Below are positions 5,458-28,538 of a stretch of 64,000 nt of DNA, in pieces. Position numbers and translations under genes: made by a program. Below the pieces are notes generated by a model that did no database searches, was not told the origin of the DNA, and saw only the letters and a list, made by a program, of their open reading frames with translations. Position 1 is the stretch's first letter, and the number at the start of each line of letters is the position of its first letter. Origin of the DNA: Thermoanaerobaculia bacterium (GTDB lineage: Bacteria; Acidobacteriota; Thermoanaerobaculia; Multivoradales; UBA5704); the NCBI GenBank assembly GCA_036275055.1, contig DASUEN010000083.1, forward strand, positions 19,187-83,186, in the 5' to 3' direction.

Positions 5458-5706
5458 ATGAGCGAAGAGCTGAAGACCTTTCTTCAGAGCCTCCGCACGA
5501 AACCTGAGCTGCTGGAGGAGCTGCGATCCTTGATTCGGGACCCGGACGCGGCGGTCCAGTGGGCTCGCGAGCAGGGATGTCACCTGACGCCGGAGGACGT
5601 CGCCGAGCTCCAGGGTGATGATGAGGAGCTCTCGGACGACGAGCTTGACAAGGTGGCTGGCGGCGACGACGGATGGCCGCCACCCCCGCCACCGCCGGGC
5701 CCTTAG
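5458..5706 (+). CDS. Nif11-like leader RiPP precursor, 82 aa, predicted core DDGWPPPPPPPGP
   Basis: ATG 5458 lies 7 nt after GGGAGGA. The N-terminus MSEELKTFLQSLRTKPELLEELRSL...AAVQWAREQGCHLTPEDV matches the Nif11-domain leader pattern. The leader ends ELSDDELDKVAGG (double-glycine site), followed by 13 residues and a stop. Confidence 0.75.
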   Translation: MSEELKTFLQSLRTKPELLEELRSLIRDPDAAVQWAREQGCHLTPEDVAELQGDDEELSDDELDKVAGGDDGWPPPPPPPGP

Positions 5707-5726
5707 GCTTCGTCGCGACGCAGGCA

Positions 5727-6749
5727 ATGGCATCCGTCCCATCCCCCGCCTATGACGACTGGCTGCGGGTGGTCAGACGGCATCTTACTCCGCCGCTTTG
5801 CAGTCTTTGGGCCCTGGATCGCCTGCACACTCTCGCCGCTCATCTCCCGGGAGATTGCCTGGGAGCCCTCGAAGCCCACCTGGGAAAGAGGGGCGGCGAC
5901 GTCGATCTGTCGATCCGTTTCACCGAGCCCGGCCAAGGCCGCCGAATGGCGGAGCAGCCCCTGCCCGCCCACCTGCGCAGCTTCCTCTCCCAATGGTCCC
6001 AGCCGGAAGGTCCGTTCTCCAGCATCCCCTGCATCTGGCTGGAGTTCGACCTGGATCGGCCGGTGGGGGACTTTCCGGTGCCATCGGTCTGCGCCCGGCT
6101 GCCGCGGGACGCCGACCTGGACTGGATCGTCGAGCTCTTGCTGCCGGCCCTGCATGGCGAGCCTCTGGGCGCAGCCCAGACCGGCCTGGTCCGGCGCTGC
6201 CACGGCGAAATCCCCGAGGAGGGCATCCTCCTCTACGTCTTCGGCCTGCTCTCCCGGCCGGGGAATCCGATACGGCTGGAGATCTTCGGGCTGGACCCGG
6301 CCGGCGCGGTTGCCTACCTGCGCCGCGTGGCGCCCCACGCCGCTCCTGCGCTGGCCGAGATCGCGCCGATCTTCGAAGGGATCGACAGGCCCCACCTGTC
6401 CCTCGACATGGGTGCTGAGATCCTGCCACGGGTGGGATTGGAAGGCTCCTTCGCCCGGCAGCGCGAACCCCGCTGGACGGAGCTCCTGGCCCGTCTCGTG
6501 GCCCGGGGCCTCTGTACGCGCGAGGAGATGGACGCCATCCTGGCCTGGCCGGGGTACGACACCCTCTGGACGGCTGCGGCGGACTGGCCCCTGGAGCAGG
6601 CCGGCGTGGGGGGATTCTGCGTGCGCAGCTTGAGCCACGTTAAAGTCGTCGCGCAACCGGGACGGGCGCCGGAGGCGAAGGTCTACTTGCTGGTCTCTTC
6701 TTTGGCCGGAGCCAAGTCGCCGGCAAGGCGGTCGGTCTTCTCGACGTAG
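5727..6749 (+). CDS. Hypothetical protein, candidate maturase of the Nif11 precursor (family not recognised)
   Basis: The ORF 5673..6749 has strong GC3 bias. Start placed at ATG 5727 (MASVPSPAYDDW), 21 nt after the precursor stop. I recognise no catalytic motif. See the finding on its repeated beta-hairpin/helix pattern. Confidence 0.55.
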   Translation: MASVPSPAYDDWLRVVRRHLTPPLCSLWALDRLHTLAAHLPGDCLGALEAHLGKRGGDVDLSIRFTEPGQGRRMAEQPLPAHLRSFLSQWSQPEGPFSSIPCIWLEFDLDRPVGDFPVPSVCARLPRDADLDWIVELLLPALHGEPLGAAQTGLVRRCHGEIPEEGILLYVFGLLSRPGNPIRLEIFGLDPAGAVAYLRRVAPHAAPALAEIAPIFEGIDRPHLSLDMGAEILPRVGLEGSFARQREPRWTELLARLVARGLCTREEMDAILAWPGYDTLWTAAADWPLEQAGVGGFCVRSLSHVKVVAQPGRAPEAKVYLLVSSLAGAKSPARRSVFST

Positions 6750-9700
6750 ACTCGCAGCCCCAGCTCCGCGAACGTCCGGCGAGCCTCGCCAAGTTGCCAC
6801 GCCGCCCCATTGGACCCTGCGCCGGCCGCCAGCGCCAGATCGAGCCGCGTGCGGGCCACCTCGAAGGGGGCCGCGATGGCTTTAAAGCTCTCCACGGCCT
6901 CGCCGAGCCACCTCTCCGCCTCTTCCCGGTCGCCGGCCGCGCGGGCGATGCGGCCCAGGGCGCGCTGGGCCATGCCGCTGCCGTAGCGGAACCGGACCTC
7001 TTCGGTGACGGCGAGCGCCTCGCGGGCGAGCACCCGGGCCTCGTCCGGGCGGTCCGAGAGGAGGCGGGCCTCGGCAAGAAAGGCGGAGAACCAGCCCAGG
7101 AGCTGCTTCATGCCGGCCCGGCGCAGCCGCTCCACGGAACCCTCCAAGGCCTCGGTCGCCTTCGGGAGATCCCCCTTCTCCAGATAGGCGTAGCCGAGGA
7201 AGCCCAGGGCTGCGGCAGTGTTGAGGGGGTCTTGGGCCCGCTCCAGCCCGCCCTTGCACTCCTCGATTCCCCGCTCGTACTCTCCCAGAGAAGCGTGGAA
7301 ATAGCCGGTGCTCCAGGATGGGTCGAGCCGGGGATCCTGGAGGGCGCGCCAGGCGGCCTCGGCCTTCTCCATCCTGCGGAACGCCTCGCCGAACTGTCCC
7401 AGGACGTAGTGATGGAATCCCGCCACCCAGTAGGCCTGCCCCTGCCACCAGCGGTCCGCGCTCCGCTCCAGCAGGTCGACCGCTTGCCGGCCATGCTCGA
7501 TCCCCTCCGAGAACCGGCCCGACCAGAAGGCATCGCGGCAGAGCACGTACCAGGCCCGTCCTTCCGTGATCGCGTCGCCGGAGCGCCGTGCCGCCTCGAT
7601 GGAGAGGCGGGCATTGGCCGCAGCCGCTTCCTGGTCGCCAAGGTAGCTATAGGTGTGGGCGAGCCAGAAGTGATAGCGGCCCGCGAGCGTTGAGTCCTGC
7701 AGACGGTCCAGGAGATCCCGCTCGGCGAGGAAAAGCTCCAGGGTCTCGGGGAAGCGGGCCAGGGGGAAGAGAGATTCGGCCAGGAGCAGGACCAGCTCCA
7801 TGCGCCGCCGGTCCGCCTCCGTCTGCGGCAGGCGCTCGCAGTGCGCCAGAGCCTCCCGCAGGGCCCTTTCCGCTTCAGCGTGGGCGTACCGGCGGGCCGC
7901 CTGAGCGGCGAAAAGGGCCAGATAGGAGACCGCTTTCCCGGCCTCGCCGGCCTCGGAGTAGTGATAGGCCAGAGCGTCGTAGACATCCTCCAGCCGCCCC
8001 GCGAAGAGCGACTCGAAAGCTTGCCCGGCAGCCGTATGCAAAGCCTGCCGCCGGCCCGTCAGCAGAGTTTGATAAACCGCCTCCTGGGTCAGGGCGTGTT
8101 TGAACAGGTACCGGGGCTCTTCCGCCGTCGGCTCCTCATAGAGGAATTCCCAACGCTTGAGGTCCGAGAGCAGAGATGGCAGATTGTCGACCTGCTCCCA
8201 GACCGCCGCCAGCAGGTTCAAGGGGAACTCCCGCCCAAGCACGGACGCCGTCTGAAGGAGCCGCTTGTGGTCGTCCGGCAGCCGGTCGATGCGGGCCATG
8301 ACCACTCCCTGGATCGTGTCGGGAACCGAGACGCCCGGATGCTCCAGTAAAGAACGAGCCAATTCCTCCAGGAAGAAGGGATTCCCCTCCGCTTTGCCGC
8401 GCACCTCGGCTACCAGATTCTCAGGGAGCTCGGCGCGGCGGAGCACGGCGCGGACGACCGCCTCGCTCTCCGCGTCTGTCAGCCGGGCGAGGGAGATCTG
8501 GGTGGCATTCGACTTCTCGATCCAGGGCGGCCGATAGCCGGAGCGGTAGGTGGCGATGAGCAGAACGTGAGCGGCGAACAGCCCTTCCACCAGCAGGGAG
8601 AGGAAATCCTCCGAGGTACGGTCCACCCAGTGGAGGTCCTCGATCTCCAGCACCACCAGCCGGCGGCGCGATTCGTTGAGGATAGCCTGCCGCAACAGCC
8701 GGAAAGTCCGGGTTTGCAAAGCCTGGGGGCTCAGCTCGGCGAGCGCCTCCGTGCCTTCCCGGATGCCGAAGAGATAAAGGACGTAGGGCAGAGCCTCCGC
8801 GACCTCCATCTCAGCCCGTCGCAGGCCGGCCATGACCTTGGCGACAACCGCAGCGGCGTCATCAGCCTCGCCGATCTCCCAGGCGTTGCGGAGCATGTAG
8901 AGGATGGGCAGGTAAGGTACGCCGCTGGTGTAGGAGAGGCACCGCCCCGCCAGGTGGAGGACCGGCCGGTTCCATAACCGCCGCCGGAATTCATAGACCA
9001 GCCGGGACTTTCCGGAGCCTGCTTCCGCCGCAATACCCACCACCTGCCCCTCCCCGGCCGCTGCCCGTTCGCGCAGCTCCTCGAGGATAGCCATCTCCCG
9101 CCGGCGGCCGACGAACGGCGAGCGGGCCGTGCTGCCGAGGACGGCATCCTCGGACTGGAGGAGGAGGCCCACACCCATCAGCCGGAACGCCCGCACCGGC
9201 GTCTCCTTCCCCTTGACCTGAAGCGGCGGTATCGCCTCCAGCCGGGCGGAGCCCTGAAGGAAGCGGCTCGTGTCCTCGCTCACCAGGATGGCCCCAGGCT
9301 CGGCGAGCTGTTGGAGCCGGGCGGCGAGATTGGTCGTATCGCCGATGGCCGTGTAGTCCCGGCGGAGCTGATCGCCGATGCCGCCCACCACCACCCAGCC
9401 GGTGTTGATCCCCATGCGGAACCGGAGCTCCACACCGCCGCGCTCCCCGAGCTCGGCGTGATGCTCCGCGAGCAGCTTCTGGAGGCCGAGAGCGGCGAGA
9501 GCCGCGCGGCGGGCGTGGTCCTCGTGGGCGATGGGAGCCCCGAACAGGGCCATGAAGCCATCCCCCAGGAACTGGTTGATGGTCCCCTCGTAGCGGTGGA
9601 CCTCGGAGAGGGCCAGCTCGAAGAACCGGTTGAGGAGGAGATGCATGGTCTCCGGCCCCAGCCGCTCGGCCAGGGAGGTCGAGCCGACGAGGTCGCAGAA

Positions 9701-10045
9701 GAGGACGGTGACCTGCTTGCGCTCCCCCTCAAGGGCGGATTTGGACTGGAGGACCTGGGCGGCGAGATGGGAGGGCGTATAGCTTTGGACTGGAGAAGCG
9801 AGGCGGGGTGCTTCAGGGGGCGGCGGAGGGGGGAGCGCCTCCGCCTTGGCCGCCCCGAGGGGGGAGCCGCACTCGCCGCAGAACTTGAAGCCGGGGAGGT
9901 TCTCAGTGCCGCACTGCGGGCAGAGGGCGGCCAGCTTCGCGCCGCACTGGCCGCAGAACTTCATGCCGGCGGGGTTGTCGAACTGGCAGTGTGGGCAATG
10001 CATGGGTTGTGGCGGTGGTTCGCAGGCCAGATTACCTTCACCCAC
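6683..10045 (-). CDS. Class III adenylate/guanylate cyclase fused to an AAA/STAND ATPase and TPR-like region, with N-terminal double zinc ribbon
   Basis: Zinc ribbons CPHCQF..CGQCG..CPQCG..CGECG. Cyclase core ERKQVTVLFCDLVGSTSLAE...FLGDGFMALFGAP...GINTGWVVVGG. P-loop AAEAGSGKSRL. Long helical-repeat C-terminus. The start is either GTG 10045 or ATG 10003 and is not resolved. Confidence 0.85.
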   Translation of the reverse strand: MGEGNLACEPPPQPMHCPHCQFDNPAGMKFCGQCGAKLAALCPQCGTENLPGFKFCGECGSPLGAAKAEALPPPPPPEAPRLASPVQSYTPSHLAAQVLQSKSALEGERKQVTVLFCDLVGSTSLAERLGPETMHLLLNRFFELALSEVHRYEGTINQFLGDGFMALFGAPIAHEDHARRAALAALGLQKLLAEHHAELGERGGVELRFRMGINTGWVVVGGIGDQLRRDYTAIGDTTNLAARLQQLAEPGAILVSEDTSRFLQGSARLEAIPPLQVKGKETPVRAFRLMGVGLLLQSEDAVLGSTARSPFVGRRREMAILEELRERAAAGEGQVVGIAAEAGSGKSRLVYEFRRRLWNRPVLHLAGRCLSYTSGVPYLPILYMLRNAWEIGEADDAAAVVAKVMAGLRRAEMEVAEALPYVLYLFGIREGTEALAELSPQALQTRTFRLLRQAILNESRRRLVVLEIEDLHWVDRTSEDFLSLLVEGLFAAHVLLIATYRSGYRPPWIEKSNATQISLARLTDAESEAVVRAVLRRAELPENLVAEVRGKAEGNPFFLEELARSLLEHPGVSVPDTIQGVVMARIDRLPDDHKRLLQTASVLGREFPLNLLAAVWEQVDNLPSLLSDLKRWEFLYEEPTAEEPRYLFKHALTQEAVYQTLLTGRRQALHTAAGQAFESLFAGRLEDVYDALAYHYSEAGEAGKAVSYLALFAAQAARRYAHAEAERALREALAHCERLPQTEADRRRMELVLLLAESLFPLARFPETLELFLAERDLLDRLQDSTLAGRYHFWLAHTYSYLGDQEAAAANARLSIEAARRSGDAITEGRAWYVLCRDAFWSGRFSEGIEHGRQAVDLLERSADRWWQGQAYWVAGFHHYVLGQFGEAFRRMEKAEAAWRALQDPRLDPSWSTGYFHASLGEYERGIEECKGGLERAQDPLNTAAALGFLGYAYLEKGDLPKATEALEGSVERLRRAGMKQLLGWFSAFLAEARLLSDRPDEARVLAREALAVTEEVRFRYGSGMAQRALGRIARAAGDREEAERWLGEAVESFKAIAAPFEVARTRLDLALAAGAGSNGAAWQLGEARRTFAELGLRVYVEKTDRLAGDLAPAKEETSK

Positions 10046-10154
10046 CAGTCGCCGTGCTCTTAGCAGTTAACGCCTAATCCTACACGCCAAAACGAAGCGT
10101 AGGAGAATTATACCCTTGGCCTTGCTCTGGAAGCCACGAATTTAGAACCAAGAA

Positions 10155-10185: not shown

Positions 10186-10230
10186 TATCTCCCGATGTGT
10201 GCAATAGCACGGCCTAATAACAGACAGTCA

Positions 10231-10443
10231 CTAGGTATCCCTAATGGAGTCAAACGCCTCCGACTGACCAATACCAGTTCTCTCAGGGTGGTCACAGTAC
10301 GTAATCACTCCTCCTCCTCCTCCATCTACTGGTTCCAGTTCCATACCCCCAGAAACGCCCTCAAGCGCCTCATCTGTCAACGGAGCCTGGAACAGTTCGT
10401 CATCAATGTTCTCCATCTTTGGATCCCTTGCCTCTAGCTCCAT
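10231..10443 (-). CDS. Double-glycine leader RiPP precursor (70 aa) of the ATP-grasp/SPASM island
   Basis: ATG at 10443 lies 6 nt after AAGGAG on the minus strand. The leader MELEARDPKMENIDDELFQAPLTDEALEGVSGG is followed by the core MELEPVDGGGGGVITYCDHPERTGIGQSEAFDSIRDT, which is rich in Thr/Ser and Asp/Glu (ATP-grasp cross-link partners) and has one Cys. Confidence 0.65.
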   Translation of the reverse strand: MELEARDPKMENIDDELFQAPLTDEALEGVSGGMELEPVDGGGGGVITYCDHPERTGIGQSEAFDSIRDT

Positions 10444-11046
10444 GAGTAACTCCTTTGCTCTGCGGCAGGTCCAATACCTGCGCACCTCCTACTCTAAGCC
10501 CCAGCGAACTCCCTGTCAATCCTAAAAAAGCGCTAAGGGAGGCGACCCGAGATCAGGACCTGCAAGACAGCGTTAAATATACTCTCATCGGAGATTTTTC
10601 GCCGTACTGGAAAACCTGCCACGAGCGTCGATCAACTCATCGGCCGGCTCGTCAGGAAAGCCGGCCGGAAACGCGTGCAGCACATCGGCGAAGGCCAGGC
10701 CTCCCCACCAAACGAAGCAAGCCAGCATCGCGGGGGAGCATTCCCCTGTCTTCTACTCTCTCTTGCTGCCACCTGAATCAGGACTACGGGGTGGAATTTG
10801 TCGAACTCGCTGAAGCCTCCTGCGGCGGCGAAGAGACTAAGACTGCTCACCAACTACTCCTCCGGTCTAGGGCCAGCATCGCCTCAGACACCAGGGTCGA
10901 CTCCTCGCGAGCCGTCAGGTCTATCGACTACGGGTAGTCTTAAACGCAAAGGGCAGAATGCCCTAGGCCCGCCGAAGCCTTGCCTCACCCCCAGGGGTGC
11001 ACGACTCCACGAGCCGCACGGTGGTGCGGATCACGGCTTTATGCTG

Positions 11047-11075
11047 TTGCCTGTACACGAATGTCCTAGTATGCT
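11047..11075 (+). promoter_or_regulatory. Candidate sigma70-type promoter upstream of the ATP-grasp gene
   Basis: TTGCCT (11047..11052), 17-nt spacer, TATGCT (11070..11075). This would give a 5' UTR of about 165 nt. Sequence match only. Confidence 0.25.
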
Positions 11076-11244
11076 ACGCTTATGTTCCGGAACTCACCGG
11101 CAGCACTGCTCCGGGAAAGTCAGCGTCTCGCTTTAGCACCGGCCACTGACTAGCCCCATGCCGGGTTCGGGATGGATTTACTTTAGCCAAGCAGGGCCGC
11201 TGTGATCGCCCGCAGCGTTCCGGCAAGGTCAATCCTGAGAGGAA

Positions 11245-12291
11245 ATGGCTACTATTATGTCACTGTATAATGCTCAAGAGGGCTCAATCCTAATTCTCAG
11301 CCAAGGTTCAGGAGAAACCACAACAGATATTGTCATGGAGTACCTGTTCCGCATGGGCCTATCGCCATTGCGCCTCAACGGAAGTGACCTTGATAGCCAG
11401 GGTAATTTTAGCATAGTTCTCAAGACGGGCGAAGCGGAGATAGATATCGAGGAATTCAAGGTTAATCTGCATCAGATTCAAGTAGTCTGGTTCCGCCGAT
11501 GGTCGGAGCGGCAGCCATTCCAAGGAATCAATATGCTTTCGGAAAATTCGCCAGAGAGTCACGATGTCTCCCAACGCGCCGCCGAACACCTTTCATCAGA
11601 ATTACGGAGGATCAGCTCTTTCCTTTTTTCCGAACTAAAACATGCAATATGGCTTAGCCACCCAAGCACTGCGAGCCCAGACAAGCTCAGAACATTAAAG
11701 CTTGCAGCAAGCGTCGGACTCTCAACACCCCACACATTAGTGACTACAAGCAGAAAACGGTTGCTACAATTCGCCCATCACCATCCCCTAATCACAAAGG
11801 CGATCGGTGATGTCGATTTTTTCCAGATAGGGTTCACCGCTCATCTAATGTACACCCAGGAACTTTCGGCAGACCTACTCGATGCACTTCCGGAAAAATT
11901 TTTCCCCTCATTATTTCAAGAAAAGCTAGAGAAACGGTATGAGCTAAGAATTTTCTACCTTGCCGGGAATTGCTATACATCAGCAATATTCTCGCAATCG
12001 GACCCCAAAACATCTATCGATTTTAGGAAATATAATCATAAAAAACCCAATAGGGTGGTGCCCTATAAATTAGAAGCTGACATGGAAGACAAAATTAGAC
12101 ACCTAATGGACTTATTAGAACTCGAAACAGGTTCACTCGATCTAATTAAGACAATCGACGGGCGCCTTGTCTTTCTCGAGGTTAACCCAATCGGCCAATT
12201 TGGGATGGTCTCTTCCCCTTGCAATTATCATCTAGAGCATAGGGTCGCCGAGTTCCTCGCGGAGAAAATCAACAATGCAAGACCTAGATAA
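11245..12291 (+). CDS. ATP-grasp ribosomal peptide maturase (grasp-with-spasm type)
   Basis: Matches to MdnC-like RiPP ATP-grasp ligases as I recall them: ILILSQGSGETTTDIVMEYL, DKLRTLKLAASVGLSTPHTLVTTS, FQEKLEKRYELRIFYLAGNCY, IDFRKYNHKKPNRVVPYKL, GSLDLIKTIDGRLVFLEVNPIGQFG. Confidence 0.85.
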   Translation: MATIMSLYNAQEGSILILSQGSGETTTDIVMEYLFRMGLSPLRLNGSDLDSQGNFSIVLKTGEAEIDIEEFKVNLHQIQVVWFRRWSERQPFQGINMLSENSPESHDVSQRAAEHLSSELRRISSFLFSELKHAIWLSHPSTASPDKLRTLKLAASVGLSTPHTLVTTSRKRLLQFAHHHPLITKAIGDVDFFQIGFTAHLMYTQELSADLLDALPEKFFPSLFQEKLEKRYELRIFYLAGNCYTSAIFSQSDPKTSIDFRKYNHKKPNRVVPYKLEADMEDKIRHLMDLLELETGSLDLIKTIDGRLVFLEVNPIGQFGMVSSPCNYHLEHRVAEFLAEKINNARPR

Positions 12292-13558
12292 TTTCCTAAG
12301 TCAACTGAAGGAAGATGCAAGTAATTGGACGCCTGTCTCCTTCCGGACAACGAGCAAATCGGAACTGGAAGCATTACCGCTGTCTCGTTATGCGGAGTCG
12401 ACGCGCTACAGATCGGCACAATACAGATGCTTCAACTTCCACAAGCCTATATCAAGAATTTTTAAAGCTATCCCTCGCATAAAAAGAGGAAGTGAACTCC
12501 CCGAAACAGAGCGCACCCGACCGACGATCAACTCGACAGCCCCAGTTACGGACGAGCAAATTTTTCTCCTCTTTGCGTGTTGTGTGCCTGTAATGGGAGC
12601 TCGCCGAAGCATAATCTGCGATCTTCAACGAGGCGCCTTCCAGTTGATACCTAACGGCTTAGCCGAGATCCTCAAGCAGTATAGAGGAAAGACTCTCGCC
12701 GCGATCAAAGACGCCTACAAGCACCAATACGATGCTCAAATTGAGCGATATTTTGAGTTCTTGATAGAACTTGAGCTTGGTTTCTGGTGCGACGATATCG
12801 ATGCTTTCTCCGAGATCGATTTTAGCTGGGACGAGCCGGAGCGTATAACTAATGCGCTCATTGATGTCGACGAGCGATCTGAGCACGACTTCGGTGTTAT
12901 CCTAAGAGATCTCGACGATCTAGGTTGTAAAGCGCTTCAGGTACGCTTTTATTCTGGCGGGCGAATTCTGCAACTCCGCGAACTACTTACGGCAGCCAAG
13001 GGTACCTGCTTGCGCTCAATTGAGCTAGTCGCACCATTTCACAGTGAAGACACCGATCAAGACTACATCCGGATGTACCTCGACTTTCCGCGCATCAGCC
13101 GCCTAATAATTCATTCCGCTCCCGATGATCGTGAACTCAAAACGGAACGCTCTCATGTACCGCTTATCTATAGAAGAATGATAATTGACTCCTCCTCTTG
13201 CTGCGGGGAGGTGCACCCCTCGTACTTCGTCACGCAGATCTCTACCTTTTCCGAGGCTCAAACCTTTAACACCTGCCTGAACCATAAGATTTCTATCGAT
13301 AGATGTGGAGAGATTAAAAATTGCCCCTCTTTACCGTACTCGTGTGGAAACATCCGGGACACTTCTCTACATAGTGCTTTAGCTCAGAGCGACTTCAAAC
13401 AACTGTGGGCTATAAATAAAGACCAAATCGAGATATGTAAGGATTGTGAGTTTCGGTATATCTGCGTCGATTGCCGGGCATACTTATCACGCCCGGAAGA
13501 TCGCTTCTCAAAGCCTGCGAAGTGTACTTATGATCCGTATTCTGCCCAATGGCGATAA
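12275..13558 (+). CDS. SPASM-domain peptide maturase partner of the ATP-grasp enzyme, lacking a canonical radical-SAM CX3CX2C motif
   Basis: The ATG overlaps the ATP-grasp stop by 17 nt. The C-terminal Cys-rich SPASM pattern is CLNHKISIDRCGEIKNCPSLPYSCGNI ... ICKDCEFRYICVDCRAY ... KCTYDPY. The N-terminal half has only ACCVPVMGARRSIIC. Confidence 0.8.
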   Translation: MQDLDNFLSQLKEDASNWTPVSFRTTSKSELEALPLSRYAESTRYRSAQYRCFNFHKPISRIFKAIPRIKRGSELPETERTRPTINSTAPVTDEQIFLLFACCVPVMGARRSIICDLQRGAFQLIPNGLAEILKQYRGKTLAAIKDAYKHQYDAQIERYFEFLIELELGFWCDDIDAFSEIDFSWDEPERITNALIDVDERSEHDFGVILRDLDDLGCKALQVRFYSGGRILQLRELLTAAKGTCLRSIELVAPFHSEDTDQDYIRMYLDFPRISRLIIHSAPDDRELKTERSHVPLIYRRMIIDSSSCCGEVHPSYFVTQISTFSEAQTFNTCLNHKISIDRCGEIKNCPSLPYSCGNIRDTSLHSALAQSDFKQLWAINKDQIEICKDCEFRYICVDCRAYLSRPEDRFSKPAKCTYDPYSAQWR

Positions 13559-13821: not shown

Positions 13822-14436
13822 CTACGTCACCATAATCTTTTTCACCATTCTGCCGAACCGCTCCCCCGCCAGGTAGACGCCGTCGAACACGTTCGCGTCC
13901 AGCTCATCGGCGTCATATTCCTCCTCCTCACCGTCCACAACCACCCCTGTGCCAAGGTCGCGGTGCAGCTCCCGGACCGTCGCCCTTGGAGAGCGCGAAA
14001 ACCGTCGAGTCCTCCAGGGCTTTGACCGTGGCGGAGGGGGCCCGGGCGTCCACGAAGGACATCTCGTCCACGATCTCGCCGGCGTTGAGGCGGGCGAGCT
14101 CCCTCTCCGGTCCCCGGTGGGGCCGGAGGGAGACGGCCAGCCTTCCTTCCAGCAGGATGAAGACGGAGTCCACCGGCACGCCCTGCTCGATGAGGGCGCC
14201 TCCCGCGGGGACGAACCGCTTCTGGCCAGCGCGGAGCATCCACTCCCCTGCTCGGTGACCCGTCCTCCCTTGATGACGTAGATGCGGTCGGCGTTCTGGA
14301 TGGTGCTCAGGCGGTGGGCGATGACGATGCGTGTAGCCTTCAGGCGCTCCAGTTTGCGGCTGACGATCTCCTGGGTACGGTTGTCGAGGGCGCTCTCGTG
14401 GCCTCGTCGAAGAGAAGGATGCGCGGTCGGTGCACG
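13822..14436 (-). pseudogene. Decayed duplicate of the exporter operon 3' end (cNMP-binding protein plus C-terminus of the second ABC ATPase)
   Basis: Collinear nucleotide similarity to 20085..20895 with two internal deletions. Translated fragments: DGVYLAGERFGRMVKKIMVT, MLRAGQKRFVPAGGALIEQGVPVDSVFILLEGRLAVSLRP...LARLNAGEIVDEMSFVDARAPSATV, and NRTQEIVSRKLERLKATRIVIAHRLSTIQNADRIYVIKGGRVTEQG. The fragments lie in different frames. Confidence 0.75.
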
Positions 14437-14621
14437 CCGCTTAGAGAGGCACCACCCCCGCCAAGCGGAGGACGGGGCGGCCCCACAGCCGGCGCGCCTA
14501 ACAGGCCGTGCTACATGGCCATGTAGTTCCACTCCGGCGAGCCCGGCCCGCACCCCCGAGGAGGGTGTCCGCCCGAATCTGTCGAGGCGAAGAAGTCCCG
14601 ATTTAATTCTTTATGAAAAAT

Positions 14622-14650: not shown

Positions 14651-14667
14651 GCAAATCGAGGGTCGAA

Positions 14668-19011: not shown

Positions 19012-20088
19012 TGGCGCCTCACCTCTCTTCGGCGGCAACTCGACGAACGCGGAGAGCGCCGGTGGAAGCAGGGCGCGGAGGGCCTCTGCCGGTTCCTCGG
19101 AAAACCCTCGCGGCCCCCTTTCCCCGATCCAGGAGAGGTCTTCCTCGCCGCGGCTCAGCACCTCCTGGAGGGTCACTGTCAGGAGGCGGCTCAGGTAGAG
19201 CTCTTCCGCGTTGCTGAGCCCGAGACGGCTTGCCGTCATATGGAGGTGGCTCCCCCCCGTCCTCGCACGGGCGACGCGGTCGCCGGTTCCTTTCGCTTCC
19301 GAGAGACGGCCAGAGCCCGCCGCGAGGAGCTCCGCCGCGGACGCTGGAGGCTCGTTCTCCGCCTGCACGGAACGTACCCTGGCCAAACTTTCGCGGAAGA
19401 GCCGCAGGAAAAGCTCCCTTTGGGATACTGCGACCCGGTCGGCCTTCTCCACGACTTTCGACGCCCCTTCGCTCCACGAATCTACGCCATACCTCAGCAG
19501 ATCGAGTAATTCGGCTTCGTCAGCCGCGAAACCGAGGGCTTGCTGGAGCAAAAGGAGGAACGCTTGCGCGAGTAGAACCGAACGCGACGCGTCCCCATGC
19601 TTCGCCAGAAGCTCGATGGCCGCCACGCTCGATAGCGTGAAGACATCGAGAGAAGAGCGAAACAGGCCCGGGCCTCCGTAGCGTTCGACCTCGGGGCGAA
19701 ACGGTACCACCTGCAACGAGTTGTCCGGATAGATTGAGGTGTCGATCTCGTGGGGGTCGCCCGCCAGGATGTACTCGTTCGATCGCTGGATCACCTCTTC
19801 AGCCAGCGACTTTGTCGAAGGGGTCAGGTCGAAAAAGTCTCGTGCCAATCGTTGAACCTCTGCGAGCACGTGGTCTCTGAAGCCAGGACGAGCTCTCAGC
19901 CGCAGACGGACGTGAGGCCCACCCAGTGCATAGCGCACGAAGAAGAAAGCCTCGATCTGATCAGCCTTTACGAGAGAGATCACCACCGGATGGACAACGC
20001 CTCTCACGACGCGATCCGGGTCCTCGTGATAGTAGAGATGGCAGGAGATCCAGCGCTCCTGGACCTCGTCGAAGGGCTGGTCGGTCAC
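19003..20088 (-). CDS. LanB C-terminal (SpaB_C, thiopeptide-type) glutamate-elimination domain protein
   Basis: WISCHLYYHED...IEAFFFVRYALGGPHVRLRLRARPG is the signature opening of SpaB_C/thiopeptide-type bacteriocin biosynthesis domains. The GTG start overlaps the upstream stop (GTGA). Confidence 0.75.
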   Translation of the reverse strand: MTDQPFDEVQERWISCHLYYHEDPDRVVRGVVHPVVISLVKADQIEAFFFVRYALGGPHVRLRLRARPGFRDHVLAEVQRLARDFFDLTPSTKSLAEEVIQRSNEYILAGDPHEIDTSIYPDNSLQVVPFRPEVERYGGPGLFRSSLDVFTLSSVAAIELLAKHGDASRSVLLAQAFLLLLQQALGFAADEAELLDLLRYGVDSWSEGASKVVEKADRVAVSQRELFLRLFRESLARVRSVQAENEPPASAAELLAAGSGRLSEAKGTGDRVARARTGGSHLHMTASRLGLSNAEELYLSRLLTVTLQEVLSRGEEDLSWIGERGPRGFSEEPAEALRALLPPALSAFVELPPKRGEAPSA

Positions 20089-20627
20089 GTCACCATCACC
20101 CGCTTCACCATCCGGTCGAACCGCTCCCCTGCCAGGTAGACGCCGTCGAGCACGTTCGAGTCCAGCTCGTCGTCGTCCTCCTCGTCCTCACCCATGGCCG
20201 CCCCGGTGCCAAGGTCGCGGTGACGCTCGCGGACGGTGGTGGAGAGGTAGATCGCCAAAGCCCGGTAGAACCGCGCCGCGAAGCCCTGGTCCGCCGCCAG
20301 CTTGGCGTTGAGGGTGGCCTTGGCGAGGGCGAAGACAGTGGAGTCCTCGGCGGCGCGGACGGTGGCGGAGGGGGGCCGGGCGTCGACGAAGGACATTTCG
20401 CCTACGATCTCGCCGGCGTTGAGGCGGGCGAGCTCCCTTTCCGCTCCCCGCCGGGGGCGGAGGGAGACGGCGAGCCTTCCTTCCAGCAGGATGAAGACGG
20501 AGTCGACCGGCACCCCCTGCTCAATGAGGATGCCGCCGGCCGGGACGAACCGCTTCTGGCCGGCGCGGAGCATCCACTCGACGTCATCGTCGTTGAGCTG
20601 GCCGAAGAGGAAGAGGACTTTGCGCAT
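20085..20627 (-). CDS. Stand-alone cyclic nucleotide-binding domain protein
   Basis: cNMP-binding beta-barrel pattern GGILIEQGVPVDSVFILLEGRLAV...AGEIVGEMSFVDARPPSATVRA. Acidic linker, then a short C-terminal tail. Confidence 0.8.
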   Translation of the reverse strand: MRKVLFLFGQLNDDDVEWMLRAGQKRFVPAGGILIEQGVPVDSVFILLEGRLAVSLRPRRGAERELARLNAGEIVGEMSFVDARPPSATVRAAEDSTVFALAKATLNAKLAADQGFAARFYRALAIYLSTTVRERHRDLGTGAAMGEDEEDDDELDSNVLDGVYLAGERFDRMVKRVMVT

Positions 20628-20637
20628 GTTTGACTCC

Positions 20638-23532: not shown

Positions 23533-23536
23533 GGCC

Positions 23537-25753
23537 TCATTCAGTGCTGATAAGCCGGGAGTAGGGGCCTTCGACGACCCGAAGCTGGTCGTGGGTGCCG
23601 CGCTGCACCACCTTGCCGTGGTCGAGGACGAGGATCTCGTCCGCATCGCGAATGGTGCTCAGGCGGTGGGCGATGAGGAGGCAGGTGCAGCCGCGGCGGC
23701 GCAGGCGCTCGTCGATCTGGCTCTCGGTGGAGGGGTCGAGGGCGCTCGTCGCCTCGTCGAGGACGAGGATCGAGGGCCTCCCTACCAGGGCGCGGGCGAT
23801 CTCCAGGCGCTGGCGCTGGCCGCCGCTCCAGTTGGCCCCTCCCTCCTCGACCGGGCTGTCGTAGCCCCCCGGGCGGGCCGCCACGTCCTCGTGGATGGAA
23901 GCGTCCTTGGCCGCGGCCACCACTTCGGGCAGGGGAACGGTGGAGTCCCAGAGGGTCAGGTTCTCCCGCACGGTCCCCTCGAAGAGGAAGACGTTCTGAT
24001 CGACCGTGGCGAGCGAGCTCGCCAGCACCGCGGGCGGGATCGCCGAGCGCGGCTGGCCGTCGAAAAGGATCTCCCCCTCCCACGGCTGGTAGAGGCCGGT
24101 GACCAGGCGGGCGAGCGTCGACTTGCCGCTTCCCGAGCCCCCCACCAGGGCGACGCGGGAGCCGGGCTTGAGCGTCAGGCAAAGCCCCTCGACGAGCGGC
24201 GGATCGAGCCGGCTGTAACCGAAGGAGACTTGGCGCAGCTCCAGGCTGCCGGCGAGCTTGACGGCCTCTCCCTCCGCCGGCATCTCGTCGTCGAGCCCGG
24301 CCGCGGCGCCGGGGTCGATGCGGTAGCGCAGGACGTCGTCCAGCCGGTTCATGTCCCCCTCGACCGTTTGCAGCTTGCCGCCGAGGCTCACCAGCCGGGT
24401 GACCGGAGCGATGAAGGCGGCCATCAGGAGCTGGTAGGCCACCAGGCCGCCCACGGAGAGCGAACCGCTCATCACCCGCACACCGCCGATCCCCAGGATC
24501 AGCGCCGAGTTGATCGCCGACAGCAGGCCCGGCCCGGCGTCGAGAAGTTGGGTGTAGCGTTCGAGCTCCTGCCGGCCGTTGACCACCTTGGCCTGGTAGC
24601 CGGCCCAACGGGAGAAGAGGTCGGACTCACCGCCCGTGGCCTTCAAGGTCTCGATGGTCTGCAAGCCGCCGATGGCCGTGCCCAGCAGCTTCCCCTGGTC
24701 CTGCACGAGGCGGCGGTTGCCGTCCACCCGCCGGCGCGAGACGTACTTCAAAGCCGCCACGTTGAGCGACACCACGGCGATTCCCACCAGGGTCAGCACC
24801 ACGTCGTACTGGAAGAGGAGCACGGCGAAGAAGGCGATCATCACGGCGCCCAAGGCGTTGGTCGCCAGATCGCGTGACAGGAGCTGGGCCACGCGGTCGT
24901 TGATCGCCACCCGCGAGCTGACGTCCCCCGCGAAGCGCTGGCTGAAGAACTCCGAGGGAAGGCGCAGCACGTGCCAGAGGAACCGGGACGAGCCCCCTAC
25001 CGCCATACGGGTCTCCAGACGCAGGAGATAGCTCTGCTGCAACCAGGTGAGGGCCCCCAGCAGCACGGCGGCGGCGCCCATGGCGAGGAGCAGCGGCGGC
25101 AGCCACTCGCGATGCCCTTCCAAGAGGACGCTATCGAGGAAGACCTTGGAGAAGACCGGCACCACCATCCCCGGAATGGCGAGCGCCAGGCCGGCGAGCA
25201 CCACGAAGACCAGGGCAGCCTTGGTGCCGGCCAGGCGGCTCTTCAACGCCGGGACGAGGCTCGGCGGGTCGCCCCGCTTCGCGAACTCGGGACCAGGCGA
25301 AAACGTCAGCACGACACCGGTGAAGGCCTGGTCCAGCTCTTCCTCGGTGACCGTCCGCGGCCCGGTGCCGGGGTCGTTGAGATAGACCCGCCCTTTGCGG
25401 ATACCCTCCAATACTACGAAGTGGTTGAAGTTCCAGTGCAGGATCATGGGGGGATGGACGGCACGCAGCGACTGGGGCTCCCGCTTGTAGCCCTTGGCTT
25501 CGAGGCCGTAGGTGCGGGCGGCCTTGACCATGTTGCTCGCCTTGCTGCCGTCGCGCGAGACGCCGCAGGCCACCCGCAGCTCTTCGAGCGGCACCCAGCG
25601 GCCATAGTGGGCGAGGACGATGGCGAGCGCCGCCGCGCCGCACTCGACGGCCTCCATCTGCAGGACGGTGGGGGTCCGCACCCGCGCCTTGGGCCGCTCT
25701 GCCGGCGGGCGCTGCCGGCGGAATTTCTCCTGGAGGCTGGCCAGGAACGGCAT
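23537..25753 (-). CDS. NHLP/Nif11-type bacteriocin export ABC transporter with N-terminal C39 peptidase domain
   Basis: C39 catalytic-Cys region VLQMEAVECGAAALAIVLAHYG plus HWNFNHFVVLEG. Walker A GGSGSGKST, signature WSGGQRQR, Walker B ILVLDEATSALD. Confidence 0.9.
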   Translation of the reverse strand: MPFLASLQEKFRRQRPPAERPKARVRTPTVLQMEAVECGAAALAIVLAHYGRWVPLEELRVACGVSRDGSKASNMVKAARTYGLEAKGYKREPQSLRAVHPPMILHWNFNHFVVLEGIRKGRVYLNDPGTGPRTVTEEELDQAFTGVVLTFSPGPEFAKRGDPPSLVPALKSRLAGTKAALVFVVLAGLALAIPGMVVPVFSKVFLDSVLLEGHREWLPPLLLAMGAAAVLLGALTWLQQSYLLRLETRMAVGGSSRFLWHVLRLPSEFFSQRFAGDVSSRVAINDRVAQLLSRDLATNALGAVMIAFFAVLLFQYDVVLTLVGIAVVSLNVAALKYVSRRRVDGNRRLVQDQGKLLGTAIGGLQTIETLKATGGESDLFSRWAGYQAKVVNGRQELERYTQLLDAGPGLLSAINSALILGIGGVRVMSGSLSVGGLVAYQLLMAAFIAPVTRLVSLGGKLQTVEGDMNRLDDVLRYRIDPGAAAGLDDEMPAEGEAVKLAGSLELRQVSFGYSRLDPPLVEGLCLTLKPGSRVALVGGSGSGKSTLARLVTGLYQPWEGEILFDGQPRSAIPPAVLASSLATVDQNVFLFEGTVRENLTLWDSTVPLPEVVAAAKDASIHEDVAARPGGYDSPVEEGGANWSGGQRQRLEIARALVGRPSILVLDEATSALDPSTESQIDERLRRRGCTCLLIAHRLSTIRDADEILVLDHGKVVQRGTHDQLRVVEGPYSRLISTE

Positions 25754-27036
25754 CAGATCCCCAGCTTCTCCCGCAGCGTGGGGATGACGAGGGCGATAGG
25801 GCGGTCCTGCTTCACCACCACGTCGCCCGCCGCCAGGGTGCCGCTGCTGATCTTGAGGCTCGGCCCCCGCGAGGAGGACCAGCGGTATCCCGTGGGGGTT
25901 TTGACGTCGCGGCGCAAGGCGACGTTGATCTGGATGGGCGGCCCCTCGGTCATCAGCTTGGTGACCAACGCCTCGTTGCCCAGCAGGCGCGTCATACCGC
26001 GGGCCGAGGAAGGGAACTCCGCCACCCAGACCACCCGTCCCAGGATGGAGCCGAACTCCTCCCGTTTGACGGTGCTGGGCGTCACCTGCACCGCCATCCC
26101 CGGCTGTACCTGCTTCCCCGCCGAGGCCGGGACGAAGAGCACGGCCATCAGGTCCTCGGAGAGCACCTCGACGGAGAGCACCGGGGAGCCGGGCGTCACC
26201 ACGTTGCCGCGGTTGGCCAGGACCTCCAGCACGCGCCCGGCGAAGGGGGAGAGGACGTTGACGTTCTCTCCGAGCTGGGCACTGAGCTCACGGGTCTGGA
26301 GGTCCAGGTCGCGCAGCGTGGTCTGCCGCGCCTCGAGCTGCTGGTCGAGCGCTTGGTCGGCCTCCAGGCGCTTGAGCTCCAGGCCGCTCAGGTCGAGCTT
26401 CTGCTGGGCGAGCTGGTCGCGCTTGGCGTTCAGGTCCTGCTGGGTGGTGAGGTAGGTCTGCTTGGTGATCAGGCCGTCGTCGAGCAGGCTCTTGCCGGCG
26501 GCCACCCGCTCCTGGAGGAGGGCCACGTCCTTCTGCAGGGCGTCGATGCTCCGCTCGAGATTGGCCCGCTGCAGGGCGAGGTCCCGGGCCCGCAGCCGCT
26601 TCTGCTCGTCCGAGGAACGTTGGAGAGACAGGTACTCCGATTGCAGGGCCGTCTGCTTGGCTTTGTTGTCCCGGATCTGGCGGATCAGCGAGTCCTGGCG
26701 GATCCTCGCCACGGGCTGCCCCTTGGCGATGACGTCCCCGACGCTCACCAGCACCTCCGCCACTTGGCCGCTGGCAGGGGAGACGAGGTCGGAAACTCCC
26801 CCCTGGCGCAGCAGGATCCCCTCGCCGTGCGCCTGGGTGGGGATCGTCCCCCAGATCCCCCAGGCGAGGGCGGCCAGGAGCAGGGCGCCGAGGCCGCTCA
26901 GCGAAAGCCAGCCACGCGGATCGGTAACCTGCACCAGTTGATCGAGCTGCTCGGGAGAGGAGAGCCTCTCCAGTGCCACTTTGCGGAAGATCACGGCCTG
27001 CGCTCCTCCACGACGGGGGGCAGGGTGATGAGCCAC
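25753..27036 (-). CDS. HlyD-family periplasmic adaptor of the bacteriocin exporter
   Basis: FRKVALERLSSPEQLDQL opening, single TM, long coiled-coil (QSEYLSLQRSSDEQKRL...), beta-barrel C-terminus. One-base TGATG junction with the ABC gene. Confidence 0.85.
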   Translation of the reverse strand: MAHHPAPRRGGAQAVIFRKVALERLSSPEQLDQLVQVTDPRGWLSLSGLGALLLAALAWGIWGTIPTQAHGEGILLRQGGVSDLVSPASGQVAEVLVSVGDVIAKGQPVARIRQDSLIRQIRDNKAKQTALQSEYLSLQRSSDEQKRLRARDLALQRANLERSIDALQKDVALLQERVAAGKSLLDDGLITKQTYLTTQQDLNAKRDQLAQQKLDLSGLELKRLEADQALDQQLEARQTTLRDLDLQTRELSAQLGENVNVLSPFAGRVLEVLANRGNVVTPGSPVLSVEVLSEDLMAVLFVPASAGKQVQPGMAVQVTPSTVKREEFGSILGRVVWVAEFPSSARGMTRLLGNEALVTKLMTEGPPIQINVALRRDVKTPTGYRWSSSRGPSLKISSGTLAAGDVVVKQDRPIALVIPTLREKLGI

Positions 27037-28538
27037 GAGACCTCGACGGCGCCCACCTCTCCATTGTCCCCGACGAGGGTGCCCGTCTCAAAGCGAAGCT
27101 GCAAAAGGGCGATCGCGAGCGCGAGTTGGGCCGAGACCTCGGTCTGCCGCGCGGCGGTCAGGCGGTCGCGCTGGTTGATGACGTCGAGGAGGGTCGAGGT
27201 GCCCCCGCGCAGCTTCTTCTCCTCGTTGACCACCGCCCGCTCGAAGAGGCGCTCGGCCTCCCGCGCCTTCTGGAGCTGCCGCGCGTCCCGCCCCACGGCG
27301 TCCAGAGCCGACGGCACGTCGGCGCCGATCCCCTTGGCGATGAGGTCTACGGCCAGGGCGTTCTGCCGCAGGGCGGCGTCCGCCTGCAACAGCTCTCCCT
27401 TCGCCCGGCGGTTCCCCACCGGCAAGGTCAGGTTGAGGGCGAGCGTGGCGCTCGCGCCCGGGACGTTGCGGTAGAGTGGGGAAAAGAAGCTCCCGGGGTC
27501 GGACCCCACCGTGAGCCCCGAGTAGCCGGGAGTGAAGAGAAGGTCGAGCTGCGGCTCCAGGGCGTTCTCGGCGGCACGGCGAAGGATCTCGGCCGACGCC
27601 TGGCGCTCCCGGGCCGCCCGCAGGTCCGCTCTGCCGCGCAGAGCGGCGGCGACGAACGGCCCGGCCGCTTCGGCCGGCGGCACCGCTTCCGGCAAAAGGG
27701 CCGGGAAGGGATCGGCAGGCAGCGGCAGCCGGTCGATCTCCGCGCTGTCCAGGCCGATCTCCCGCCCCAGGTCGCGCCGCGCGGTGAAGAGCTGGCGCTC
27801 GCCGCCGATCCGCGCCGACTCCTGGGCCGCCAGGTTGGCTTCGAGCTGCACCACCTCGGCCGCCGGCACCTGGTCGGCCGCGATCAGCTTGCGGGTGTTC
27901 TCCAGCAGCTCGCGCGAGCCGGCCTCGCTCGCCGCGAGCACCTCGAGGTTGTGCACCGCGGCTGCGACCGTCCAGTATTGGGAGACCACGGTGACGAGCC
28001 GTTGCGAGACGAGGTGACGCACGTCGAGCCCGGCCGCCGCGAGCTCCCGTTGCGCCGCGAGCTCGCCGGCCGCCGTGGCCGCCCGGCCGCGCCCGCGCAA
28101 CAACGGCTGGCGGATGAGGAAGGTGACGGTCCCCGCATTGGCGGCACTGGAGCCGGCGGTCACGTCCTCGGTGCGCACGACGCCGGCTTGCGGCTCGATG
28201 GACAGCCCGGTACGGAACTGCTGGGTCAACCCCACCGAGCTCTGGAGCGTCCGCGTCTCCTGGCGGGAGCCGGGCGCCACGAGCGTCCGGTCGTCCACCT
28301 CGCTCAGCCCGGAGGTAACGACCGGATCGAACTGGCTGGAGGCGATGGCGAGCGATCCCCGCGCGCTGTCGAGCCGCGCCTGCTGCACGGCGAGGTTGGG
28401 ATCGCGCGCGAGCATCGTCTGCACGGCTTCCAGCAGCTTGAGGCCGGGGCCGGAGGTGGATTCCTCAGCCCCGGTGCCCTGCGGGATCGCCAGCAGGACG
28501 ATGGCGAGGTAAAACCGGACGCTGCGCATTAGAATCAA
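26991..28538 (-). CDS. TolC-family outer membrane efflux protein
   Basis: Signal peptide, then two tandem OEP-type helical repeats (LLEAVQTMLARDPNL..., LEVLAASEAGSRELLENTRKL...). First gene of the exporter operon. Confidence 0.8.
   Translation of the reverse strand: MILMRSVRFYLAIVLLAIPQGTGAEESTSGPGLKLLEAVQTMLARDPNLAVQQARLDSARGSLAIASSQFDPVVTSGLSEVDDRTLVAPGSRQETRTLQSSVGLTQQFRTGLSIEPQAGVVRTEDVTAGSSAANAGTVTFLIRQPLLRGRGRAATAAGELAAQRELAAAGLDVRHLVSQRLVTVVSQYWTVAAAVHNLEVLAASEAGSRELLENTRKLIAADQVPAAEVVQLEANLAAQESARIGGERQLFTARRDLGREIGLDSAEIDRLPLPADPFPALLPEAVPPAEAAGPFVAAALRGRADLRAARERQASAEILRRAAENALEPQLDLLFTPGYSGLTVGSDPGSFFSPLYRNVPGASATLALNLTLPVGNRRAKGELLQADAALRQNALAVDLIAKGIGADVPSALDAVGRDARQLQKAREAERLFERAVVNEEKKLRGGTSTLLDVINQRDRLTAARQTEVSAQLALAIALLQLRFETGTLVGDNGEVGAVEVSWLITLPPVVEERRP

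Follow-up and report, generated by a model that had tools for sequence, protein, structure and literature searches.

A C39 exporter locus in a Thermoanaerobaculia genome that probably serves three RiPP precursors, one of them on a foreign island

A 64-kb stretch of DNA (the window), which is part of one 89.9-kb contig of a Thermoanaerobaculia metagenome-assembled genome (MAG), encodes three precursors of peptides that are made on the ribosome and modified after translation (RiPPs), called A, B and C here, and an ATP-binding cassette (ABC) exporter with a C39 peptidase domain. We put the probability that this one LahT-like exporter cleaves and exports all three precursors at roughly 0.65. This is the best-supported reading of the locus, and it draws on homology, the fit of a leader motif and synteny. 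In the mechanism that we propose, precursor A would be modified by an ABBA-fold enzyme, with its Trp being prenylated, an ATP-grasp ligase together with a SPASM-domain protein would act on precursor B, which is of the graspetide type, and a split LanB dehydratase and a JmjC/cupin-type oxygenase on precursor C. The C39 domain of the exporter subunit ABC1 would bind a block at the end of each leader and cut after its Gly-Gly (GG), and the ABC1/ABC2-HlyD-TolC machine would export the cores of A, B and C. The count of one intact exporter given below holds for the 64 kb of the window, which has a GC content of 69% and contains housekeeping genes between 30 and 64 kb. A myxobacterial or actinobacterial origin, which this GC content might suggest, is contradicted by the related loci and by an exact protein match, which place the DNA in Thermoanaerobaculia.

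The three leaders are unrelated outside their last ~13 residues. These residues are ELSDDELDKVAGG (ELSDDELDKVAGG) in A, PLTDEALEGVSGG (PLTDEALEGVSGG) in B and ALSDDELESVSGG (ALSDDELESVSGG) in C. They have L-12, S/T-11, D-10, L-7, V-4, G-2 and G-1 in common and conform to the consensus L-(S/T)-D-(D/E)-(E/A)-L-x-x-V-(A/S)-G-G. A preliminary description of this DNA had pointed out three short open reading frames (ORFs) with nearly identical leader ends, and the translations agree with it. The strict pattern [DE][DEA][LA][DE].[IV][SA]GG has three matches in the six-frame translation of the whole window, which are exactly precursors A, B and C, whereas 200 random sequences drawn from a Markov-1 model to match its composition contain none. 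Taken alone, the looser pattern L-x4-L-x2-[IVL]-x-G-[GAS] is not above chance in the window (7 observed versus 3.1 ± 1.8 expected). The same description had proposed a search with models of the Nif11 and NHLP leader families. Precursor A does belong to TIGR03798 (51.4 bits versus a cutoff of 32.3) and also has a Pfam Nif11 match, but B and C, whose leaders are short, fall outside these families, with no match to TIGR03798 or TIGR03793 at E <= 0.1. Precursor C has only weak, generic bacteriocin_sig matches, and precursor B matches no NCBIfam family.

The C39 domain of ABC1 is 55.6% identical to LahT150 (PDB id: 6mpz) over 142 residues (E = 1.6e-50). Its catalytic Cys, His and Asp are kept in the alignment with 6mpz and 4ry2, where they lie in the segments ...QMEAVECGAAALA..., ...NFNHFVVL... 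and ...LNDP..., respectively. The leaders that LahT150 cuts are of the Nif11, NHLP, short lanthipeptide and glycocin kinds; it needs no more of a leader than the final 13 residues, and L-12, L-7 and a hydrophobic residue at position -4 are critical (Bobeica et al. 2019, PMC6363468). Cleavage of all three precursors by ABC1 is plausible because each of the three leaders has the L-12, L-7, hydrophobic -4 and GG that LahT150 needs.

The exporter operon occupies 28538-19003 of the minus strand and consists of genes for TolC, HlyD, ABC1 (with the C39 domain), ABC2, a cyclic nucleotide (cNMP)-binding protein and a LanB C-terminal protein (Table 1). The last of these starts where the cNMP-binding gene stops. 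Three NHLM models match above their cutoffs and tblastn finds no second full-length exporter copy within the window, so that the earlier claim of a single intact C39 exporter in a TolC-HlyD-ABC-ABC operon of the NHLP/Nif11 type holds. An exact-sequence look-up of ABC1 returned no record. The start of ABC2, whose ORF measures 1002 residues, was corrected to 23532, 4 nt past the ABC1 stop. The protein carries an N-terminal extension of ~275 residues (22700-23532, minus strand) for which neither Pfam nor NCBIfam gives a family; its interpretation as a cNMP-binding domain found no support from Pfam, NCBIfam or a BLASTP comparison with the cNMP-binding protein. The TIGR03896 match of the latter covers only the C-terminal half of the model.

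Table 1. Features of the exporter locus and its three peptide modules, in window coordinates
Feature	Position	Strand	Details
Precursor A	5458..5706	+	Nif11-type leader, 69 aa, ending ELSDDELDKVAGG; core DDGWPPPPPPPGP
Module A enzyme, ABBA-fold prenyltransferase-like (predicted), 340 aa	5727..6749	+	AlphaFold2 and Foldseek; start codon verified
Zn-ribbon/adenylate-guanylate cyclase/AAA_16/TPR regulator	6683..10045	-	Pfam; partial TIGR03903 (TOMM kinase/cyclase) match below cutoff
Precursor B, 61 aa from internal Met	10231..10416	-	Leader MENIDDELFQAPLTDEALEGVSGG; end of core ...TGIGQSEAFDSIRDT; ORF open up to 10443 or 10485
Spacer without recognisable gene, ~0.8 kb	10444..11244	.	No Pfam match for 160-aa ORF; no Rfam or tRNA match
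Grasp-with-spasm ATP-grasp maturase	11257..12291	+	TIGR04192, 268 bits vs cutoff 230; model 1-318 of 318; GC3 0.48
Grasp-with-spasm SPASM-domain maturase	12275..13558	+	TIGR04193, 320 bits vs cutoff 175; model 2-332 of 342; GC3 0.51
cNMP' pseudogene fragment	13824..14245	-	75-80% aa and 81-88% nt identity to intact cNMP; frameshift and internal loss
ABC2' 3'-end fragment	14246..14448	-	~Residues 919-975 of 1002-aa ABC2 ORF; tblastn 74-93%; blastn 88.5% to 20705-20893
Probable divergent LanB N-terminal (glutamylation-type) dehydratase domain protein (LanB_N), 933 aa	14686..17487	+	Start verified vs P0241
Precursor C	17480..17701	+	25-aa leader MSKPKDANLEIEALSDDELESVSGG; Thr/Cys/Gly/Asn-rich core with repeated T-x-x-x-G-G-x-C units
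JmjC/cupin-type oxygenase	17767..19011	+	PF08007 JmjC_2, E 1.6e-19; kept in L007, L011, L084, L085
LanB C-terminal (elimination-type) protein (LanB_C)	19003..20088	-	PF14028, E 2.3e-35, 123.5 bits vs cutoff 24.4; TIGR03891
cNMP-binding 'bacteriocin-type transport-associated' protein	20085..20627	-	PF00027; TIGR03896, 160.5 bits vs cutoff 161.05
ABC2, permease/ATPase without peptidase domain, 964 aa	20638..23532	-	TIGR03797, 938 bits vs cutoff 709; no C39 match
ABC1, C39 peptidase/permease/ATPase	23537..25753	-	TIGR03796, 1107 bits vs cutoff 853; PF03412, E 6.9e-36
NHLM HlyD-type membrane fusion protein	25753..27036	-	TIGR03794, 369 bits vs cutoff 156
TolC-family outer membrane protein	26991..28538	-	PF02321 OEP, E 2.9e-26; TIGR01844 below its cutoff
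DUF7005 protein	28555..29712	+	PF22541, E 5e-143; divergent neighbour of exporter

The surroundings of the exporter were compared with 80 loci that encode relatives of ABC1 and with further homologous loci (all numbered with the prefix L). The conserved core in Thermoanaerobaculia is DUF7005 on the minus strand followed by TolC-HlyD-ABC1-ABC2-cNMP. In locus L084, which is on a JGI contig (158,632 bp), a Nif11 precursor is followed by the module A enzyme, the cyclase (minus strand), LanB_N, a precursor, JmjC, and then LanB_C, cNMP and ABC2 (all minus strand), which is the order of the window minus the island that carries module B. Between L073 and the window, collinearity extends from ABC2 across module C and on into the cyclase gene at 68-84% nt identity, and L073 likewise has no island. 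The cNMP gene is followed by the cyclase gene and then by module A in L003 and L012, and in L016 the cyclase gene lies directly past ABC2 and precedes A-type and C-type precursors. Precursors of both types stand beside one cassette in L016, L084 and L086. The comparison with relatives that the preliminary description had called for thus turned out in its favour: module types A and C are found beside the cassette repeatedly, and, the insert apart, L084 and L073 run collinear with the window. Judging from these sequences, module A – cyclase – module C – exporter is a conserved arrangement of the lineage. Several precursors per exporter are common in the compared loci: when 54 exporter loci that measure 15 kb or more were searched by one pattern for GG-leader peptides within 10 kb, 15 loci had two or more, 15 had one and 24 had none. 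L084 additionally carries, at 3523-9509, a LanC, a LanM (DUF4135 and LANC_like) and two more small ORFs, one of which has an ...LDDRDLDSVSGG leader; these would mean further chemistry beside the same cassette.

Module B resides on a low-GC island (~10.05-13.8 kb), as had been noticed earlier. The GC content of the island is 0.45-0.52, and that of its third codon positions (GC3) is 0.48-0.51 versus 0.73-0.92 in the neighbouring genes. The two maturase ORFs overlap at 12275-12291. The ATP-grasp maturase is a 100% match to the NCBI protein P0001 from a Thermoanaerobaculia MAG, and the next best match is at 62%. For the SPASM maturase, Pfam gives the SPASM domain only, with no Radical_SAM match. 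The start of precursor B is most likely the internal Met at 10416. Its core contains Thr/Ser, Asp/Glu and one Cys, and its GC3 of 0.50 is that of the island. GC3 of modules A and C is also below that of the exporter genes (0.73-0.83 versus 0.90-0.92), which could be due to weaker expression or to greater mobility in the past.

The partnership of precursor B with the ATP-grasp and SPASM enzymes, asserted from the window sequence, is upheld by its relatives. The orthologue in L087 (733-912, plus strand) reads ...ELFEAPLADKELEEAAGG before and LVATYCHNEEATGIGQSEAFDSIRDS after the GG site, or in full MGRDEKKSPMEQIDSELFEAPLADKELEEAAGG followed by LVATYCHNEEATGIGQSEAFDSIRDS. It is encoded upstream of a grasp gene on the same strand, and this grasp homologue is the closest one (62% identity; contig GC 0.57). 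The window peptide reads MENIDDELFQAPLTDEALEGVSGG followed by ...ITYCDHPERTGIGQSEAFDSIRDT for comparison, and the core segment TGIGQSEAFDSIRD is strongly kept between the two. L083, L088 and L081 have related precursors, which immediately precede the grasp gene or follow the SPASM gene. Orthologues beside grasp genes (L087, L083, L088) and the island composition are also why we reject a partnership of precursor B with the same-strand cyclase/TPR gene. The residue at position -4 is Val in the window, the type that LahT150 prefers, and Ala in L087, a single comparison that constitutes no proof. Relative to L087, the window precursor is inverted and has an extra MELEPVDGGGGG segment, in which a further GG site with V-4 and L-7 is possible. 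A sigma-70-like site lies upstream of it (10519-10491, minus strand), and the counts of such sites are at chance level. No tblastn match supports the adjacent spacer as a decayed adh_short, sulfotransferase or response-regulator gene of the kind that neighbours the module in L081 and L083. The window contains no second precursor past the SPASM gene, such as is present in L081 and L082. The latter two loci carry their own C39-ABC, MacB and HlyD/GAF genes beside the grasp-with-spasm module. The window island has no such genes, and the resident ABC1 is therefore the obvious candidate exporter for precursor B.

The segment 13824-14448, directly beside the island, has high GC and is 81-88% identical in nucleotide sequence to the end of the intact cassette (20087-20893). 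It has suffered a 125-nt loss that spans the junction of the ABC2 stop and the cNMP start, and nothing of the rest of ABC2' is found upstream; the cNMP_binding domain is still detectable in the cNMP' fragment. This segment is a dead remnant of a second NHLM cassette. Island and remnant make up an insert of ~4.6 kb between the starts of the cyclase gene (10045) and of LanB_N (14686), and both are absent from the collinear loci L073 and L084. Homology to the relatives ends at ~10,000 and resumes at ~14,750, and exact breakpoints cannot be placed, since the intergenic sequence is not kept in L084, L085, L086 or L073. The island has no flanking direct or inverted repeats and no integrase or tRNA at its ends; searches for Rfam families and tRNAs gave no match.

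Because island and remnant are both missing from the collinear relatives, a joint arrival is the history that we favour. The island would formerly have been located downstream of cNMP in another, related cassette and would then have come here along with part of that cassette, perhaps through recombination with the conserved flanks as anchors. The sequences thus suggest that module B is a recent foreign insertion that was previously parked beside another exporter of the NHLM type. With a fragment of a second cassette beside the island, the sharing of the exporter is partly a derived state.

Precursor A has orthologues beside homologous enzymes in L003, L012, L016, L084, L085 and L086. The cores of these peptides are linear and 9-17 residues long, and 7/7 (window and six loci) contain a Trp and a Pro run: DDGWPPPPPPPGP in the window and DDAWGGNPPPPKP, EDAWPPPGGG, DTAWPPPPTPPTEGG, DNAWTPPPH, WTGDPPPPTS and AWNDPPPPSSSGGGTGG in the relatives. 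The enzyme encoded next to precursor A had been listed as an unassigned protein of 341 residues. Its length is 340 residues, and the lack of a sequence family stands, with no match in searches of Pfam, NCBIfam and PDB (phmmer and profile). A fold can now be given for it. The AlphaFold2 (AF2) model built from 32 sequences has a predicted local distance difference test score (pLDDT) of 92 and a predicted template modelling score (pTM) of 0.89, and displays repeated alpha-beta-beta-alpha units. In a Foldseek search of the PDB, ABBA prenyltransferases account for 50 of the 50 matches listed, with a best E-value of 4.5e-7, a probability of 1.00 in 49 of them and template modelling (TM) scores of 0.26-0.56, mostly 0.4-0.55. 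The matches include IptA, AmbP1/3, NphB/Orf2, CdpNPT, PriB, CymD, LimF, PagF, PatF and DciF. At least 340 homologues of the module A enzyme exist, mostly in Thermoanaerobaculia. The invariant residues of the family, among them several Arg, Lys, Tyr and His, fall on predicted strands in an i/i+2 pattern, which would fit the interior of a diphosphate-binding barrel. The enzyme is thus predicted to be an ABBA-fold aromatic prenyltransferase-like protein and, because of this fold and the Trp in 7/7 partner cores, leader-dependent prenylation of the core Trp is the predicted reaction.

At somewhat less than even odds, we tentatively propose that the module A enzymes constitute a previously unannotated, Thermoanaerobaculia-wide family (at least 340 members) of ABBA-fold leader-dependent peptide prenyltransferases, which act on Nif11-leader precursors with linear Trp-then-Pro-run cores of 9-17 residues. 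Their product would be a small prenylated-Trp peptide, possibly a signal, exported by the shared NHLM cassette and encoded beside a conserved histidine kinase in the window and in L085. By analogy with ComX-type pheromones, the peptide could have a signalling and not an antibiotic role. A sensor kinase beside the gene for a small prenyl-Trp peptide could likewise point to signalling. The left flank of module A (2914-5342) encodes an M23 peptidase, a polyketide-cyclase-like protein and an RsbRD_N histidine kinase, and the same set is found at 6914-9715 in L085. A polyprenyl synthetase gene located ~47 kb from module A (53217-54143, minus strand) is probably a housekeeping gene and could supply the prenyl donor.

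In module C, the JmjC_2 gene lies between the genes for LanB_N and LanB_C, the latter being on the opposite strand. The LanB_N protein has no Pfam match of its own at E <= 0.01, but it resembles PDB entry 9jhq (goadsporin LanB-like; E = 7.7e-5), and homologues with identities as low as 31% contain PF04738 or bear the name lantibiotic dehydratase. By sequence, LanB_N and LanB_C are probably the two parts of a split LanB. Together with the TIGR04192, TIGR04193 and JmjC_2 matches, the Lant_dehydr_C match confirms the neighbouring chemistries named earlier, an ATP-grasp and SPASM pair and a LanB with a cupin. LanB enzymes glutamylate Ser/Thr in a glutamyl-tRNA-dependent reaction, which is followed by elimination. 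By analogy, we infer that the core of precursor C is dehydrated, and thioether formation with its Cys is possible. Orthologues of precursor C with near-identical leaders and T-x-x-x-G-G-x-C repeats are present in L073, L084, L085 and L086.

A number of observations weigh against a shared exporter and the chemistry attached to it. The window shows 64 kb of one MAG contig, and further peptidase-containing ABC transporter (PCAT) exporters may exist elsewhere in the genome. The tolerance of LahT150 is a property of a homologue that is 56% identical. As 24 of the 54 exporter loci have no pattern-matching GG peptide within 10 kb, adjacency is neither necessary for a partnership nor proof of it, and L085, where modules A and C are present, shows no exporter in the ~1.2 kb covered past LanB_C. 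The prenyltransferase assignment is made at the level of the fold, with a TM score of about 0.5 and no sequence-level match. No LanC/LanM cyclase is encoded in the 64 kb (no LANC_like domain among the ORFs scanned and no tblastn match to LanC/LanM of L084); L084 and L085 have LANC_like genes nearby. With precursor B inverted and its promoter sites at chance level, the island may be silent. The L(X)4L motif of leaders has likewise been described as a contact for modifying enzymes (PMC12715784).

Part of this evidence would be explained if the co-location had arisen from a hot spot of integration or recombination beside the cassette, with at least precursor B being processed by another exporter or protease elsewhere, or not at all, and the leader end being a widespread double-glycine convention. 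The partial view of the genome and the modules of L085, with no adjacent exporter, agree with this explanation, as do the different C39-ABC, MacB and HlyD/GAF set with which grasp-with-spasm is paired in L081 and L082, and L083, L088 and a JGI contig, which have no exporter within 8-10 kb. Besides, the L087 precursor, which is of the donor lineage, already possesses a GG leader with L-12 and L-7, so that no adaptation to this host would be needed. We nevertheless consider it unlikely: there is no second intact exporter within the 64 kb, precursor B has every LahT-type determinant including the V-4 that is Ala in L087, and the remnant links the island to the end of an NHLM-type cassette before or during its arrival. 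Less probable still, in our estimate, is that the island is decaying cargo with a non-functional module B, and that the hub serves only A and C, the conserved lineage arrangement. The inversion of precursor B relative to L087, the 0.8-kb spacer of no recognisable content, the clearly dead cassette fragment next to it and the lack of a promoter signal above chance could all be read in this way, but the grasp and SPASM ORFs are full length relative to their models and score above cutoff, the precursor B ORF is intact with a core strongly kept in L087, and an unameliorated composition speaks for a recent arrival rather than long decay. We find it very improbable that the leader end is kept mainly by the maturases through L(X)4L recognition and not by the exporter. 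The prenyltransferase MppC and other RiPP enzymes are reported to contact this motif in Nif11/NHLP leaders (PMC12715784), yet three unrelated enzyme sets (ABBA-fold, ATP-grasp/SPASM and LanB/JmjC) are not expected to need the same 12-residue block. Phylogenetic profiling ties the motif more strongly to the transport cassette than to any maturase (PMC2887384), and the structure and mutagenesis of LahT150 map the same residues to the groove of the protease (PMC6363468).

Taken together, the fit of the leader ends to the LahT150 determinants, the kept catalytic residues, the position of LanB_C in the exporter operon, the synteny of relatives and an island that has no exporter of its own, such as L081 has, favour the earlier proposal of one cleavage and export hub for three pathways. 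It has to be amended in that the second-cassette fragment makes the sharing partly derived.

Two further proteins are associated with the cassette. The cyclase gene lies directly after cNMP in L003, L012 and L015 and directly after ABC2 in L016 and L022, and it is also present in L084-L086. Because cyclase/TPR and cNMP-binding proteins accompany the cassette in the relatives, their genes suggest that export could be under cyclic-nucleotide control. DUF7005 adjoins NHLM cassettes in Thermoanaerobaculia, Gemmatimonadota, Vicinamibacterales and Pelotomaculum (L001-L036) and is thus kept across phyla. We found no literature on it and no relatives in the PDB, and its single-sequence AF2 model (pLDDT 38) is unusable.

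The preliminary description regarded the shared hub as an undescribed system, and this cannot be maintained. Haft, Basu and Mitchell (2010, PMC2887384) used phylogenetic profiles of NHLP and Nif11 precursors to define exactly this cassette of three genes, attributed leader conservation to handling by the transporter and spoke of 'mix-and-match' of maturases, and a broad tolerance for leaders has been demonstrated biochemically (PMC6363468). The concept of a shared double-glycine exporter with swappable maturases was therefore already published in 2010. The logo of leader ends in PMC2887384 equals ELSDDELDKVAGG of precursor A: acidic residues occupy its positions 1, 4 and 6, Leu positions 2 and 7, Ser/Thr position 3, Val/Leu position 10 and Gly-Gly positions 12-13. 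The window cassette matches TIGR03794, TIGR03796 and TIGR03797 above cutoff and has a Nif11-type precursor adjacent to it, as the NHLP/N11P cassette does. It differs from the latter in its Thermoanaerobaculia host, in the TolC gene of its operon and in the dead end of a second cassette. In addition, its chemistries are not the TOMM (thiazole/oxazole-modified microcin) or LanM sets, and precursors B and C are not NHLP/N11P members.

Other systems are similar in part. The lah cluster of Lachnospiraceae C6A11 contains the closest solved C39 homologue and has one transporter for nine precursors with diverse cores. LahA1-9, however, share one leader type (Nif11), whereas the window has three leader types, each with its own maturases, and its exporter is known from sequence. 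In the prochlorosin system of Prochlorococcus MIT9313, many Nif11-leader double-Gly precursors are likewise assigned to one presumed C39 transporter (PMC6363468, PMC2887384), but a single promiscuous maturase, ProcM, carries out one chemistry there, as opposed to three in the window. Module B resembles the grasp-with-spasm loci of branch 5 (TIGR04192/TIGR04193) in having both enzymes above cutoff, a GG leader and a Thr/Ser/Asp/Glu core. That branch was described as specific to Bacteroides, and the ATP-grasp locus, as a rule, does not encode the C39 peptidase (Makarova et al. 2022, PMC8939145). Unlike these loci, the window system is found in Acidobacteriota, on an island of foreign composition, and its precursor is inverted. 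Module A is closest to MppC/MppE, where MppC geranylates a Trp of a Nif11-leader lanthipeptide (PMC12715784; the term ABBA is not used for MppC there). Both have a Nif11-type leader, a core Trp and a dedicated prenyltransferase, predicted in the case of the window. In MppE, cyclisation of the core by a LanM comes first, whereas module A has no lanthionine enzyme and a linear Trp/Pro core of 9-17 residues, and its enzyme is assigned by fold only.

What is new, then, is the conserved two-module super-locus of Thermoanaerobaculia, a third, foreign module that was probably captured recently along with the dead end of a cassette, and the fold-level assignment of the module A enzyme. Through this assignment, what was a 'hypothetical protein' becomes a prenyltransferase candidate that can be tested and for which a family of peptide substrates is defined. 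As leaders A, B and C are probably removable by LahT150-type proteases, heterologous production of the peptides would be straightforward. The super-locus belongs to an uncultured soil lineage, in which the window provides a natural and datable example of a foreign RiPP module, its composition not yet ameliorated, landing beside a C39 exporter. It gives a hint that the end of the cassette may serve as a landing pad for the exchange of modules.

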